23,671 bases of DNA. It comes from Candidatus Aenigmatarchaeota archaeon. GTDB lineage: Archaea; Aenigmatarchaeota; Aenigmatarchaeia; QMZP01. Position numbers and translations under genes: made by a program. The stretch lies in NCBI GenBank assembly GCA_038999435.1, contig JAVZYR010000008.1, forward strand, positions 1 to 23,671, given 5' to 3'. Shown here piece after piece: positions 1,082 to 16,190 of the stretch. Each line of letters begins with the position of its first letter. The stretch's first letter is position 1. A model generated the notes under the pieces. The model was given only the letters and a program-made list of their open reading frames with translations. It did no database searches and was not told where the DNA came from.

Positions 1082-1183
1082 TTGTCGAGTAGAGAGATGT
1101 CTCTCCTATCATTTCTGTAGGTTCAGTGTCAAGCCTTGGATTATTCTACATCCCTACAGATCTATCTGCCCATCTCACCACTT
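1082..1183 (-). ncRNA. 102-nt BHB intron in 16S (E. coli 1499/1500), putative box C/D guide RNA
   Basis: Canonical BHB: GUCG/CGAC helix, bulges UA|A and AA|A, inner stem AGUGG/CUACU; splicing restores AAGUCGUAACAAGG. Contains two segments antisense to the host 16S, each 1 nt upstream of a D-like box. The intron call is firm, the guide function is inferred. Confidence 0.85.
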
Positions 1184-1859
1184 TACGACTTAGCCCTTCT
1201 CGCAGGGACCTGGCTCGATTCTGGCAATAACCAAAAGCTCGCCAGGTCCCCACTCGGCTGGCTTGACGGGCAGTGTGTGCAAGGAGCAGGAACATATTCG
1301 CCGCTAGATGATGACCAGCGACTACTAGGGATTTCGGCTTCACGAGGGCGGGTTTCAGCCCTCGATCCGAATTGAGACCGGGTTTAGGGATTGGCTTCCC
1401 CTTTCGGGGTTGCAGCCCATTGTCCCGGCCATTGTAGGCCGCGTGTAACCCAGGGGATTCAGGGCATACGGACCTGCCGTCGACCGCTCCTTCCTCCCAG
1501 TCATCCCGGGCAGTCCCCTATGAGTGCTTGGCTCGAAAGCCAATAGCAACATAGGGCGCGGGTCTCGCTCGTTACCTGACTTAACAGGACACCTCACGGC
1601 ACGAGCTGACGACGGCCATGCACCACTTCTGAGCGTGTCTGGTAAGGTCTTCAGCCTGACCTTCATTCTGCTCTCGCCCCTGGTAAGGTTCCCCGCGTTG
1701 TGTCGAATTGAACCGCAGCCTCCACCCCTTGTGTGCTCCCCCGCCAATTCCCTTAAGTTTCAACCTTGCGGCCGTACTCCCCAGGCGGCCCACTTAACGG
1801 TTTCCCTTCGACCCTAGCAACCCCCTTAAGGCTGCTAGAATCCAGTGGGCATTGTTTAC

Positions 1860-1907
<48 letters not shown>

Positions 1908-1976
1908 TCCCTCACCGTCGGATCCGTTCTAGTGCAGTGCCTTCGCCATAGGTGGTCCTCTCAGGATTAACGCATT

Positions 1977-2095
1977 CTCGGTCCTTCTTTACGAATTTGT
2001 GCAAGCGAAAGCTGCCGTAAAGAAAGGCAGTAAAGCCTGCATATTTCTTTCGCAAGCGTTTCTTTGTGCAAGCGAAAGCTGCCGTAAAGAAAGGC
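1977..2095 (-). other. 119-nt BHB intron in 16S (E. coli 694/695)
   Basis: CGGU/ACCG helix, bulges AA|G and AG|A, inner stem CCUU/AAGG; splicing restores GCGGUAAAAUGCG. Contains an exact 33-nt direct repeat (1996-2028, 2063-2095). Confidence 0.9.
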
Positions 2096-2783
2096 TTACC
2101 GCTACCCTGAGAATACCCTGCACCTCTCCCGGTCCCAAGTCCTGCAGTATCTCTAACAAGCCCCACAGTTGACTGTGGGATTTCATTAGAGACTTACAGA
2201 ACCGGCTACGAACACTTTAAGCCCAATAATCGTGGTCACCACTCGGGGCGCGGGTATTACCGCGGCGGCTGGCACCCGTCTTGCCCACCCCTTATTCGCC
2301 GAGCTTTTTAAACTCGACAAAAGCCCCTACCGAAGTAAGGGCACTCCGAATCCCTCCGTCGCGCTTGCGCGCATTGCGGAATTTTCGCGCCTGCTGCGTC
2401 CCGTAGGACCTGGATTCTTGTCTCAGAATCCATCTCCAGGCTCCCTCTGTCAAGGCCCGTACCCGTTATAGGCTTGCCAGGACATTACCCTGGCAACAAC
2501 CTGATAGGCCGCAGTCTCATCCTCAGTTCAGTCAGGGCGCAATCTGTAAGCTTTAAAAAATTCATAAAGCCTATTCCAGCCTCCCTGACCTATCCGGTCC
2601 TCGGCCTCAGTTTCCCGAGATTGGACCGGGCCTGAGGGTAGATTGACTACGTGTTACTGAGCCGTTTGCCTTGCAGTCCTAGAAACTAGAACCACAAGAC
2701 TCGCATGGCTTAGCCGGATTCGGATAGCAGTGACCTCCGGCGGGATCAACCGGAATGAAATTGGCGGTTGCTCCTTGTTTTTG

Positions 2784-3551: not shown

Positions 3552-4240
3552 AAATAAGAATAAGATATCTGAAAAAGATTGCAAAGTTGAAGAGAAAGAG
3601 GTATCATCCTCTACTGCACAAGATTCATAAAGAATATAAAATATCGCGAAAGACATTGCTTTACATCAAGGAATATGGACCAAGGAGCAGTGCCATAAAG
3701 AATATCATTAAAGAAAGCTTTTCTGTGCTGATTTTCGCATCGATTATCAGCTCAGTAGGTGGTCTTGCACTTGAGAATATAAAGGCACTTTTTATCTCTA
3801 TTATCCCTTTAATCATACTTCTTCCTGCATTGAATGATATGATTGGCGATTTTGGCACAATCATCGCAGCACGCTTCTCAACTTTGCTACATGAAGAAAG
3901 GATAAGTAAAAAATGGTGGAAAGATGCTGATGCAAAAAAGCTCTTTTGCCAAGTATACATAGCTGCAATGATCACAGCTATTTTATGTTTTGTTTCTGCT
4001 ATTGTAATCTCAGTATATTCAGGTTATGTAGATTATATTATGGCAACAAAAATATTTTTCATAACAATTATAGATGTTATGGCCCTTGTGAGCATCATAT
4101 TTGCAATCTCAGTTGTAGCAGGATTATATTTTTATAGGAAACAAGAAGACCCTAACAATTTTCTTATACCAATATCAACATCCATTGCCGATTTTGGAAA
4201 CATGCTCATACTTTCTTTACTTGTTCTTATTTTCTTTTAG
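3548..4240 (+). CDS. MgtE-family transporter, second membrane-domain subunit
   Basis: LPALNDMIGDFGTIIAAR and DPNNFLIPISTSIAD motifs; ATGA overlap with the upstream paralogue. Confidence 0.85.
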   Translation: MKIRIRYLKKIAKLKRKRYHPLLHKIHKEYKISRKTLLYIKEYGPRSSAIKNIIKESFSVLIFASIISSVGGLALENIKALFISIIPLIILLPALNDMIGDFGTIIAARFSTLLHEERISKKWWKDADAKKLFCQVYIAAMITAILCFVSAIVISVYSGYVDYIMATKIFFITIIDVMALVSIIFAISVVAGLYFYRKQEDPNNFLIPISTSIADFGNMLILSLLVLIFF

Positions 4241-4793
4241 TGTATATTTTTGCAAAAAGACCAGCAGGGTAATTTTTTATCACAAGTCCTTCTCCTTTCC
4301 CATCAATTGCATAAGGACTCTTTTTCTCCAGTAAATGCTTTACAATATTCTCATCAACAGGACCCTTATGCAAAACATCCAATATTATTACATCAGGCAC
4401 ACCTTCAATCCTTTTTGTAGCCTCTTCATAGTTTAACCAACCATCATCCCACACATCAAGCAGAAATAGCTTGTTGAGAAATTCTGGCTTATAATCTATT
4501 TTCCTATTTTCGCGATTTGTGAGAAGCTCAAAAAAATAAACACCATCTTCCAGTTTTTCTAGAGATTGATAGTTATTCCAAAAAATCTTTTCAAGCACAC
4601 CCGCTATGTTTGTTTTTTTCATGCTTTTTGAAAGCCTTCCTGAGCGAAGACCTCTCGAAAGATATTTTCCACTCTTTTTTATCATGCAATTTATCCCATC
4701 TATCTTTTCAAAGATGTACGCATTCTCAAATAGTCGCATCTTTTCTGATTCAGACATCTTACTGAGATATGGTATGTGAGGATATTTTCTCAT
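4227..4793 (-). CDS. ATP-dependent RNA ligase-family protein (adenylyltransferase domain only)
   Basis: Nucleotidyltransferase motifs I (FEKIDGIN), III (YFFE), IIIa (FLLDV), IV (EGLVIK), V (AKI); N-terminal KYPHIPYL. Confidence 0.8.
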   Translation of the reverse strand: MRKYPHIPYLSKMSESEKMRLFENAYIFEKIDGINCMIKKSGKYLSRGLRSGRLSKSMKKTNIAGVLEKIFWNNYQSLEKLEDGVYFFELLTNRENRKIDYKPEFLNKLFLLDVWDDGWLNYEEATKRIEGVPDVIILDVLHKGPVDENIVKHLLEKKSPYAIDGKGEGLVIKNYPAGLFAKIYTKRK

Positions 4794-6161: not shown

Positions 6162-7007
6162 ATGAAAATTTTCAATATTTTATTTGCGCTAATGTTAATA
6201 GTCTTGTTCGGCTTTTGCATAAATCTCTATCTTGAATTAGAGCAAAAAGAAATAGAAATACAAAAGGTCTGGTCAGAAAATCAGGAGCTACAGCTTAAGA
6301 TTTCCAAAATTAATTTGGAGATCGAAAGTATGACTGCATTTGTTAAAAACCTAACCACACATGAAAGGGCAGAACTAAAAAATATCAGTTGGGACGAACT
6401 TAAAGGATTTTTGAGACTTGACAAAACAAATGAACTTGTTTATAACGAAGATAGATTTGATTGCACAGGCTTTGCTTTGAAATTATATGAGAATGCGAGA
6501 CTGCTTGGCATAAAATCAGGCTTTGTTGAGGTAGAATTTGAGAATGAAAGTTATGGCCATATCCTCAATGCATTTCAAACTGATAAAGGCATCATATTCA
6601 TAGATGTGACAGGAAATGAGAATGGCACAGGCACTGACAAGGTTGCTTATATACAGATAGGAAAAGCATATGGAGTTATAGATATTGGTAGCCTTAAAGA
6701 AAGATTAGCAAAATGTGATGTATCCTGTGAGAGCATGGCCAAAGGACTTTCATACATCGAGTTGTATGATGTTTTCAGTTATACCTATTTTGAAAAATAC
6801 TATGAGTGCGTAGAATTTTATGAGAAATGTGTAGATGTTTACAATGCTGAAGTGGAAAAGTACAACAGAGGCAAGAGCAGCTATAGTTATAAAGAGTTAA
6901 AGACATGGTATGATAGCATAGATGCCCTTGAGATGATGCTTTTTAGGGAAAACATCTCAACAGCATCAAAGGGATCTGTTGTGAAAAAGCTTAATATTTA
7001 TTGGTAA
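6162..7007 (+). CDS. Membrane-anchored coiled-coil protein with a transglutaminase/papain-like domain
   Basis: N-terminal TM helix, coiled coil, FDCTGFA...GHILN...FIDVT Cys-His-Asp pattern. Confidence 0.6.
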   Translation: MKIFNILFALMLIVLFGFCINLYLELEQKEIEIQKVWSENQELQLKISKINLEIESMTAFVKNLTTHERAELKNISWDELKGFLRLDKTNELVYNEDRFDCTGFALKLYENARLLGIKSGFVEVEFENESYGHILNAFQTDKGIIFIDVTGNENGTGTDKVAYIQIGKAYGVIDIGSLKERLAKCDVSCESMAKGLSYIELYDVFSYTYFEKYYECVEFYEKCVDVYNAEVEKYNRGKSSYSYKELKTWYDSIDALEMMLFRENISTASKGSVVKKLNIYW

Positions 7008-7021
7008 TGCGGGGGGTAGGA

Positions 7022-7327
7022 TTCTCTCTGGAAACCCTCAAGGTTTCCAGCCATCCGGGAGCTGTTTCGCTTCGCTCCACAACGCTTCCGGAAGCGTGAG
7101 AGTGGAAGCAGTAAGCTCCCTCTTGCTCGCACGCTTTTTGCCAAAGCGTGCCTGCGAGCGCTTTCTTCTTGAAAGAAAGGCTCTGAAATCGGAAGCGGTC
7201 AGCTCCTTCACAAAGTCAGACATCATTCAGAGCATTTATGCTCGGTGCGCGTCTGGCTTTGTGTTGCTCGCACGCTTTTTGCCTAAAGCGTGCCCGCGAG
7301 CGCTTTCTTCTTGAAAGAAAGGGCTCA
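7022..7327 (-). other. 306-nt T-loop (59/60) intron of tRNA-Leu with two repeat units plus extra hairpins
   Basis: Removal restores UUCGAAU; relaxed motif UUCG/AGAG; first 32 nt identical to the tRNA-His T-loop intron. Confidence 0.82.
7104..7323 (-). repeat. Intron-resident modular hairpin repeat, units 4-5
   Basis: cgctttcttcttgaaag at 7159-7175 and 7301-7317; 7191-7265 matches 369-443 at 72/75 nt. Confidence 0.9.
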
Positions 7328-7361
7328 TTCGAACCTACGAAAGCGCCTAAGCGCACAGGAT

Positions 7362-7404
7362 TTCTTCATGCACTGCATAATGCAGCTTTCAGCACTTAAG
7401 AATG
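7362..7404 (-). ncRNA. 43-nt anticodon intron of tRNA-Leu, putative box C/D guide for U34
   Basis: Order: UCUUAAGU (antisense to own anticodon loop), G, CUGA, hairpin GCUGCAU/AUGCAGU, AUGAAGA. Confidence 0.8.
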
Positions 7405-7473
7405 CTTAAGTCCTGCCCCTTTGGCCACTCGGGCACCCCCGCAATAATAAGATTTATTTTTATGATTTAAAAT

Positions 7474-7989
7474 TTAGAAATCAAAAGAGAGCTGCTCTAG
7501 CTTTGGCTCTCTATACTTTTCTAACTGCGATTTTTTCAAATCTACTTCACGTTTTTCAATCTTTGGTAATTTGATGTCTCTTATGTATTCGCCTTTTGCC
7601 TTTTTAACATAATGTATTTTGTATATTCTATTTCGTCCTGCTTCGACGATCTCATTCAGCTCTTGTTCATTTTCAGGTATGCATCTTTTATCCCATACAC
7701 CAGCAAAAAAGTATATCTTCTTCCAATCATCAAGCCCTTGTAAATAATCTTTAACTTTCTCCAAAATCTGTCTGTTTTCTGTTGTAGCTCTTGCAAATGA
7801 GCGTATGCCATATATCACACGTTTTAGTGGTTCCTTGTTTATCTTCCCTCTGTAGAGGTTAGCATCAAAACCATCATTAAGTGGTGTGCCAAGTCGATTG
7901 AAAAAACCAACAATTTCATTCACAGCTTCGTATTTATAATAGGGCAAGGTCTCCCAATTTTCTCGCGGATTGTAATTAGTTTTCAACAT
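7474..7989 (-). CDS. Hypothetical protein
   Basis: Uninterrupted ORF with protein-like composition; ATG 7989 chosen over TTG 8007. Confidence 0.65.
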   Translation of the reverse strand: MLKTNYNPRENWETLPYYKYEAVNEIVGFFNRLGTPLNDGFDANLYRGKINKEPLKRVIYGIRSFARATTENRQILEKVKDYLQGLDDWKKIYFFAGVWDKRCIPENEQELNEIVEAGRNRIYKIHYVKKAKGEYIRDIKLPKIEKREVDLKKSQLEKYREPKLEQLSFDF

Positions 7990-15533: not shown

Positions 15534-16190
15534 TTAAGGATTAAACTTTAAAACAGCAAACATGTGGTCTTTTTCATAGGGGTCAAGTTCTGTTTTGTCA
15601 ACAAGCGTAAAGCATTCTGCAAGTTTTTTGAATTCCTGCTGATAGATTTCTTTTGGCTCTTTTGTTACATCTATTGACCTTGATTTTATTGCAATAAGCG
15701 CAAATCCACCTGGCTTTAAAAAAATCTTAGCATTTCTGATTGCAATCTCTGATTGATCTGGTGTTGCAACATCCTGATAAAGTATGTCCACCTCCTCTAT
15801 CCAGTCATAATCCTGCGGCCTTCTTGCATCTGCAATCACCGGCATGATGTTCTTTCTTTTTTCAGCAAGTATGAGCAGTTCTCTGAAAGGACGCTCTGAT
15901 ATTTCAATGCCATAAATAAAACCATTGTTGCCAAGTATGTCTGAAAAATATGATGCAGTCTGGCCATTTGCAATGCCAAGATATAGCATTTTTTGTCCAG
16001 GTTTAATAGGCCATTGTTTCAGGCCTTTTATGATTGCTGCTGCTGGTTTTGAACGGTGTGGTTCCCAAACCCTGTATTCCTGTTTTCCAATCATCACAAG
16101 CCTTTCAGAAAAAAAGCGCTGACCTGGTGTTAGATTGGGTGTTAGAAGTTCGCTGTCCTTTTTCCATATGCCAGGAAAGAGTTGTCTCAT
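15534..16190 (-). CDS. flpA: Fibrillarin-like rRNA/tRNA 2'-O-methyltransferase
   Basis: EYRVWEPHRSKPAAAI, LYLGIANGQTAS, DARRP, YQDVATPDQ, KSRSIDVT, LDPYEKDH. Confidence 0.95.
   Translation of the reverse strand: MRQLFPGIWKKDSELLTPNLTPGQRFFSERLVMIGKQEYRVWEPHRSKPAAAIIKGLKQWPIKPGQKMLYLGIANGQTASYFSDILGNNGFIYGIEISERPFRELLILAEKRKNIMPVIADARRPQDYDWIEEVDILYQDVATPDQSEIAIRNAKIFLKPGGFALIAIKSRSIDVTKEPKEIYQQEFKKLAECFTLVDKTELDPYEKDHMFAVLKFNP

Follow-up and report, generated by a model that had tools for sequence, protein, structure and literature searches.

One of the closest described systems is carried by the pre-tRNA-Trp intron of euryarchaea (Haloferax volcanii; Pyrococcus sR50), a guide RNA with a terminal C/D motif, an internal C'/D' motif and two guides, one for C34 and one for U39 (PMC4090602, PMC11408192, PMC7994747). 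In their available text, reviews from 2014 and 2024 name it as the only guide inside a tRNA intron (PMC4090602, PMC11408192), and among the Pyrococcus guides for nucleotide 34, which serve tRNA-Leu(CAA) and tRNA-Leu(UAA) as well as tRNA-Met and tRNA-Trp, only that for tRNA-Trp is intronic (PMC7994747, available part). Randau (2012), in the part of the report available, counts tRNA-Trp as the only case known before and describes the elongator tRNA-Met intron of Nanoarchaeum equitans as a stable RNA with one box D and one box C (PMC3491384). The two leucine tRNAs are served in Pyrococcus from separate genes, by trans-acting RNAs of two-motif architecture with a 12-nt guide, and one of these, sR47, methylates C34 of tRNA-Leu(CAA) in vitro (PMC3413156, PMC7994747). 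As far as the available account goes, natural complexes are said to conserve the two-motif architecture without exception, single-motif constructs made before had been reported not viable, and the single-motif C/D complex engineered by Hardin and Batey (2006) was active with its site specificity lost (PMC1635284). The same product is made on the same tRNA by protein enzymes that use no guide RNA and choose the site in an unrelated way. Bacterial TrmL is a protein-only Nm34 enzyme for tRNA-Leu. In eukaryotes, Nm34 is formed on tRNA-Leu by Trm7–Trm734 (PMC6847430, available part). No guide in a tRNA-Leu intron was found in the literature searched, with most subscription papers outside the reach of that search.

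The window analysed here (the whole stretch of DNA, 23,671 nucleotides) is contig C8, one of 30 in a 549-kb genome estimated to be 86% complete. It carries a tRNA-Leu(UAA) gene with two introns, which was read by eye and whose acceptor, D, anticodon, variable and T arms are pairable. Automated annotation missed the gene: ARAGORN reported no tRNA over the window, Rfam returned rRNAs only, and Rfam with E values of up to 10 over positions 6500–7700 gave chance-level matches only. One RNA run of the same study had nothing aligned on 6950–7500. The features of the locus are as follows (positions in the window).

7442–7008, minus strand: tRNA-Leu(UAA) gene with two introns
7442–7405, 7361–7327 and 7020–7008, minus strand: exons of tRNA-Leu(UAA), G1 being 7442
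7410–7405 (7405..7410), minus strand: putative target C32–G37 (CUUAAG), with U34 at 7408 and the anticodon UAA at 7408–7406
7404–7362, minus strand: intron 1, 43 nt, at the canonical 37/38 position, A38 being 7361
7401–7394, minus strand: antisense (putative guide) element UCUUAAGU, the core CUUAAGU of which pairs with G37–A31
7393, minus strand: spacer of one base, G, just before CUGA
7392–7389, minus strand: D'-like box CUGA (NNGA at the same spacing in 75 of 80 modules)
7388–7370, minus strand: stretch separating the two boxes, made up of AA, a hairpin, G and the first base of the bulge; a K-loop into which a hairpin is inserted
7386–7372, minus strand: 6-bp hairpin inside the insert (intron G19–U33), from folding of the intron
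7369–7363, minus strand: C'-like box AUGAAGA, overlapping the strand used by the splicing helix
7326–7021, minus strand: intron 2, in the T-loop, about 306 nt, outside the guide module
15543..16163, minus strand: fibrillarin gene (PF01269, 266 bits), given as context and separate from the RNA

Every element that the earlier note had assigned to a C/D-type guide in intron 1 is present on the minus strand. A 7397, the fifth base upstream of CUGA, lies opposite U34 (7408) and pairs with it, as had been claimed for the D+5 position. The duplex, put at 7 bp in the precursor and 8 bp after splicing, comprises 7 bp in the precursor (A31–G37) and reaches 8 bp only with A38 in place of intron base 1. 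The GA of AUGAAGA opposes the GA of CUGA, the U and C of which pair with A and G of AUGAAGA. The window's K-loop has no closing pair beside the G–A pairs and is one of the four irregular modules among 80; in a relative of the same genus (L009), whose intron is 32 nt long, these two boxes are separated by a plain 7-nt K-loop, so that the hairpin in the window is read as an insertion into the K-loop. Folding energies of intron 1 alone and with its arm are unremarkable (z of −0.73 and −1.44, respectively). The likeness to the layout of a 16S intron, also proposed in the earlier note, was not confirmed: on reading, no such boxes occur in the 121-nt or the 33-nt insertion of the 16S rRNA. Compared with the Rfam model, the 121-nt insertion in this 16S rRNA (1156–2756, minus strand) lies at about 1975–2095 and consists of two copies of a module, and the second insertion, of 33 nt, lies at about 2541–2573 (minus strand).

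With the tRNA-Trp guide, as described in the available sources, the intron shares the 37/38 site, an element antisense to its own anticodon region, nucleotide 34 at the methylation position, and guide and splicing folds that exclude each other. It differs in its host tRNA-Leu and in having one kink, one guide and a total length of 30–50 nt (window and relatives) instead of the two-guide, two-motif layout; no element antisense to nucleotide 39 was seen in the tRNA-Leu introns of the window and 80 relatives. Compared with an archaeal C/D sRNA, the terminal K-turn of boxes C (RUGAUGA) and D (CUGA) is absent, the window and the 80 relatives having a single box pair. An internal C'/D' K-turn or K-loop motif is present, on counts biased in the model's favour, since NNGA belonged to the search pattern and partner pairing entered the score by which the C' candidate was picked. 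The D'+5 register is as expected, and the guide forms 7–9 bp, against a usual length of about 10–12 nt. The Nanoarchaeum tRNA-Met intron likewise sits at 37/38 in a DPANN host and has a single box D, a GC hairpin and a single box C; it differs in its host tRNA and its length of 66 nt, and the available account gives neither a target register nor comparative support (PMC3491384). The stand-alone leucine guides of Pyrococcus are directed at the same base of the same two tRNAs (PMC3413156, PMC7994747, available parts). One K-turn and one guide are also what the engineered hemi box C/D RNP has, for which catalytic activity is known (PMC1635284, available part). In contrast to that artificial complex, a short loop and the body of the tRNA here connect the far end of the duplex with its target, a tie that might stand in for the second anchor.

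We favour the reading, with a probability of roughly two in three, that the 37/38 intron of pre-tRNA-Leu(UAA) is a single-K-turn C/D-type guide for 2'-O-methylation of nucleotide 34 of its own precursor. CUGA and AUGAAGA would form an L7Ae-binding kink (a K-loop), and the seven bases just upstream of the kink would pair with A31–G37 of the same precursor, rather than of another, in a hairpin closed by the first four intron bases. U34 would thereby face the fifth base upstream of the D'-like box, the position at which fibrillarin bound to Nop5 would add the 2'-O-methyl group. Genes for fibrillarin, Nop5 and L7Ae are all present in the genome, and a loose, crude scan of it for canonical two-motif C/D sRNAs gave five weak candidates. 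The proposed hairpin and kink would not coexist with the fold needed for splicing. In archaea, the bulge–helix–bulge at the splice sites has a 4-bp helix with a 3-nt bulge on either side. The tail of intron 1, GAAGAA, can form a relaxed version of it with C32–U34, in which the central helix has three pairs (C32–G, U33–A and U34–A) and an A–G mismatch and the outer helix has two pairs. Because the C'-like box overlaps the strand of this central helix, the guide and splicing folds are mutually exclusive, and we propose that methylation comes first and that splicing follows once the proteins have left. The computed energy is −13.0 kcal/mol for the anticodon stem with the cis hairpin and −4.9 kcal/mol for the relaxed bulge–helix–bulge. 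In a 60-nt context, the minimum-energy fold (7405–7415 with 7390–7400) extends the cis hairpin into the D'-like box, the CUG of which then pairs with C27–G29; a wobble pair would permit a like extension into the UUGA box of relatives. The extension may be a coincidence.

For comparison across relatives, genes were collected with an exon-only pattern (3' side of the D stem, anticodon stem and loop), which matched at 107 places in 94 of the 371 genomes of the phylum, all from a single class. These gave 106 distinct contexts with flanks and, with one non-tRNA match (L068) excluded, 105 tRNA-Leu(UAA/CAA) genes. A full module was defined as an element antisense to C32–G37, a spacer, NNGA, a hairpin or 5–7-nt loop, a 3-nt bulge, and GA followed by two bases paired with bases 1 and 2 of NNGA. 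It occurs in 80 of the 105 genes, from 12 families of the class; a further 18 genes have an intron without the module, six have no 37/38 intron and one (L008) keeps the antisense element next to a decayed D' box. The antisense element, NNGA and xUGAnnn are thus kept in 80 of the 99 intron-bearing tRNA-Leu(YAA) genes, and all comparative tests run support the earlier proposal of a single-guide C/D-type intron RNA directed at the wobble base of its own tRNA. Six introns matching a relaxed regular expression (L041, L051, L052, L064, L080 and L091) were rejected by eye: their tails contain AAGA or GTGA, and a C' partner is absent. In the module-less set, co-occurrence with fibrillarin is uninformative: all five tested genomes with a module-less intron still have fibrillarin, and none of the five has a stand-alone copy of the guide with xUGA by exact motif, a search that a looser guide would escape.

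The spacer, counted from the antisense element to NNGA, is two bases long in 75 of the 80 modules, which puts nucleotide 34 at D'+5. Four bases separate the two elements in the other five, all from the window's own family (L026, L099, L101, L103 and L106; L101 was re-registered by eye), which puts C32 there. Nucleotides 33, 35 and 36 stand at D'+5 in none of the 80. To our knowledge, positions 32 and 34 are those at which ribose methyls are known in the anticodon loop. In two genomes with the four-base spacer in tRNA-Leu, the tRNA-Trp module retains a two-base spacer (L251 and L256).

Chief among the rival accounts is a fold, bound by L7Ae, with a purely structural role. In that account, which we consider unlikely, the kink and the anticodon-masking hairpin are a structural or chaperone device: L7Ae holds the precursor fold and no methyl is transferred, the anticodon loop and splice sites being hidden so that processing is ordered or the precursor protected. 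Several features suit such a device, and some of them also count against a guide. There is only one K-turn, with one box pair in D-then-C order in the window and in the modules of the 80 relatives; the duplex is short (7 bp here, 7–9 bp in relatives, against the 12-nt guide of sR47; PMC3413156), A31 must leave the anticodon stem to form it, and the loop is tight. The hairpin fold is computed to be more stable than the splicing fold, and the C'-like box overlaps the splicing helix. The constant spacer could equally reflect the constraint of a three-way junction. Hemi-complexes were unspecific in vitro (PMC1635284), and L7Ae binds many K-turns outside guide RNAs (PMC5539422), in the available text of both sources. 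Counting against the guide alone, the register is shifted in 5 of 80 modules, an A stands opposite C34 in 2 of 80, the window's K-loop lacks a closing pair, and the module is absent from 18 of 99 intron-bearing genes, in genomes that still have fibrillarin (5 of 5 tested). Against a device that only holds a fold stand a register that falls on nucleotide 34 or 32 and never on 33, 35 or 36, boxes that match the C'/D' consensus beyond the two G–A pairs, and the presence of the module in tRNA-Leu(YAA) and tRNA-Trp, whose nucleotide 34 is a known C/D target elsewhere, and not in tRNA-Asp, the intron of which has no kink in this genome.

The self-guide reading also fits the way in which the module varies. 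Across all 80 modules the pair at nucleotide 34 is U–A in 56, C–G in 22 and C–A in 2; both C–A cases (L089 and L090) come from two species of one genus, in which the anticodon is CAA and the guide is still as for UAA, and may record a recent anticodon change that the guide has yet to follow. A MAFFT alignment was made of 60 of the 75 two-base-spacer modules (introns of up to 56 nt, distinct rows). In it the pair at nucleotide 34 is U–A in 38 rows, C–G in 20 and other in 2, and 90% of the cells of the 9-pair guide helix are paired. Pairing falls to 38–51% when the partner is slid by one column, and the observed helix covariation was reached in none of 500 shuffles. RNAalifold on the 60 relatives predicted the central splicing helix with a 3-nt bulge and did not return the guide hairpin, which rests on the explicit pair counts. 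The box partners vary together as well. Bases 1 of D' and 6 of C' are paired in 72 of 80 modules (mean 44.7 and maximum 55 in 2000 shuffles), as U–A, C–G, A–U, G–C or U–G, and bases 2 of D' and 5 of C' are paired or U–U in 66 of 80 (59.6 on average and at most 65 when shuffled). The 3-nt bulge ends in U in 79 of 80. The inserts between the boxes comprise 59 hairpins, 17 short loops and the 4 irregular cases, with 75 distinct sequences. Covariation of the box partners as a K-turn or K-loop is thereby supported at the level of sequence comparison.

Which molecule the guide would act on is indicated by its flank. The base 5' of the guide pairs with intron base 1 in 47 of 58 modules (U–A 16, A–U 13, U–G 13, C–G 4 and G–C 1), and this covariation with intron base 1 implies that the selected partner is the unspliced precursor, across the 5' splice junction. 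A script counted flank pairing with the beginning of the intron in 54 of 75 modules and with A38 and the following bases of the spliced tRNA in 27 of 75. No more than 12 nt separate G37 from the guide in 63 of 75, and one relative has UUCG in this stretch. Pairing within the precursor would most simply be an intramolecular hairpin. The earlier note had described the complementarity on the spliced tRNA and suggested that the intron might be active as the excised circle; these counts favour the unspliced precursor as the target instead. A real guide that acts in trans, with the excised intron (linear or circular) or another precursor methylating spliced tRNA or other precursors, accordingly seems to us improbable. 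It would suit the window itself, where the pair between intron base 1 and the flank is not formed (C against U), the flank U 7401 would pair with A38 of the spliced tRNA, and circularization would bring the guide to 13 nt from the C'-like box. In the available text of the sources, the Haloferax tRNA-Trp intron guide is reported to act in trans (PMC7994747, PMC4090602) and archaeal tRNA introns circularize (PMC7994747). Across relatives, however, the flank follows the intron base and not the invariant A38, and target and guide stay joined by a short loop; between two precursors, action in trans may nevertheless occur.

Scanned stringently for the module, the 0.55-Mb genome yielded nine matches, against a mean of 2.35 (range 0–6) in 20 shuffled genomes. 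Four of the nine are 37/38 introns, of tRNA-Leu(UAA), tRNA-Trp(CCA), tRNA-Arg(UCU) and tRNA-Glu(UUC), and all four have nucleotide 34 at D'+5. The tRNA-Trp(CCA) intron of this genome is 30 nt long and of the one-kink form; a module aimed at C34 is present in all 14 tRNA-Trp genes found by BLAST in 41 genomes, this one included. All 11 tRNA-Arg(UCU) genes found in 31 genomes have a module aimed at U34. The tRNA-Arg(UCU) gene of this genome (contig C14, about 4135–4260; L244) has three introns and a cis hairpin of 9 bp with a 4-nt loop, and tRNA-Glu(UUC) (contig C18, about 520–590; L246), known from this genome, has a one-kink module aimed at U34. The tRNA-Tyr(GUA) gene (contig C6, 17056–17156; L247) has a 27-nt intron with boxes of consensus sequence, CUGA and AUGAUGA, and a 6-nt loop between them; this intron has no element antisense to its own anticodon loop, and a guide would arise only across the junction of a circularized intron.

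Searched for in one genome per prokaryote species, the tRNA-Leu(UAA) module motif matched at least 120 stretches. Among the matches listed, 71 of the 80 loci read are tRNA-Leu(UAA) genes with the module, from records that include Aenigmatarchaeota, Woesearchaeota, Pacearchaeota, Nanoarchaeota and Nanohaloarchaeota, and nine are chance matches (eight bacterial and one non-tRNA archaeal). Four loci (L131, L154, L187 and L189), from Woesearchaeota and Nanoarchaeota records and one metagenome-assembled genome labelled Methanosarcinales, have no D arm upstream of the anticodon stem and share unrelated sequence in its place; their tRNA-Leu genes seem to be either interrupted by a further intron or split immediately 5' of the anticodon stem, and the label Methanosarcinales could result from misbinning. 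These comparisons allow an ordinary intron with chance motifs, or with a recently duplicated CUUAAG palindrome, to be dismissed as an explanation. In its favour, CUUAAG equals its reverse complement, the motifs CUGA and xUGA are short and the folding z-scores are not significant. Against it, the module is kept across 12 families of this class as well as other DPANN phyla, its box partners covary, and the guide base follows the anticodon, the guide being a true complement and not a repeat in tRNA-Leu(CAA), tRNA-Trp, tRNA-Arg(UCU) and tRNA-Glu(UUC), which excludes the duplication that the earlier note had named as a way to refute the guide.

The self-guide reading may extend beyond one gene. We tentatively suggest, at a little less than even odds, that DPANN archaea run a family of natural single-K-turn self-guides, in which 37/38 introns of 30–50 nt would fold on the anticodon loop of their own precursor and fibrillarin would methylate the wobble base, the hosts reading two-codon, purine-ending sets (Leu-UAA/CAA, Trp, Arg-UCU and Glu-UUC). 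If so, at least four tRNA species would be served in this one genome, including coverage of the two leucine tRNAs for which Pyrococcus keeps separate guide genes, and intron-borne guiding would be a general modular solution in small archaeal genomes instead of a special case of tRNA-Trp. Such RNAs would break, in nature, the rule that C/D RNPs have two motifs, with the covalent loop that joins guide and target replacing the second anchor: a natural one-kink C/D enzyme, of a form that in vitro work judged active but imprecise and never used in nature. The source of site precision would become directly testable with a 43-nt RNA. A self-guiding function would also give a reason for the retention of introns at 37/38 and explain why shrunken genomes keep both these introns and the C/D proteins, and the module would provide a sequence rule for spotting hidden tRNA genes and modification sites in metagenomes.

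Intron 2 of the tRNA-Leu gene contains an internal duplication (7123–7180 and 7264–7322). Its opening module also begins the T-loop introns of tRNA-Arg(UCU) (contig C14) and of the two other tRNA-Leu genes (contig C18), and on this ground the long T-loop introns look as if built from shared, possibly mobile, modules. At 7216–7230 (minus strand), CUGA, AUGAUGU and CUGA stand back to back, with another CUGA about 20 nt further on; this box-like cluster gave no fit to a guide RNA. The stretch that follows the cluster recurs in the D-loop intron of a tRNA on contig C3.
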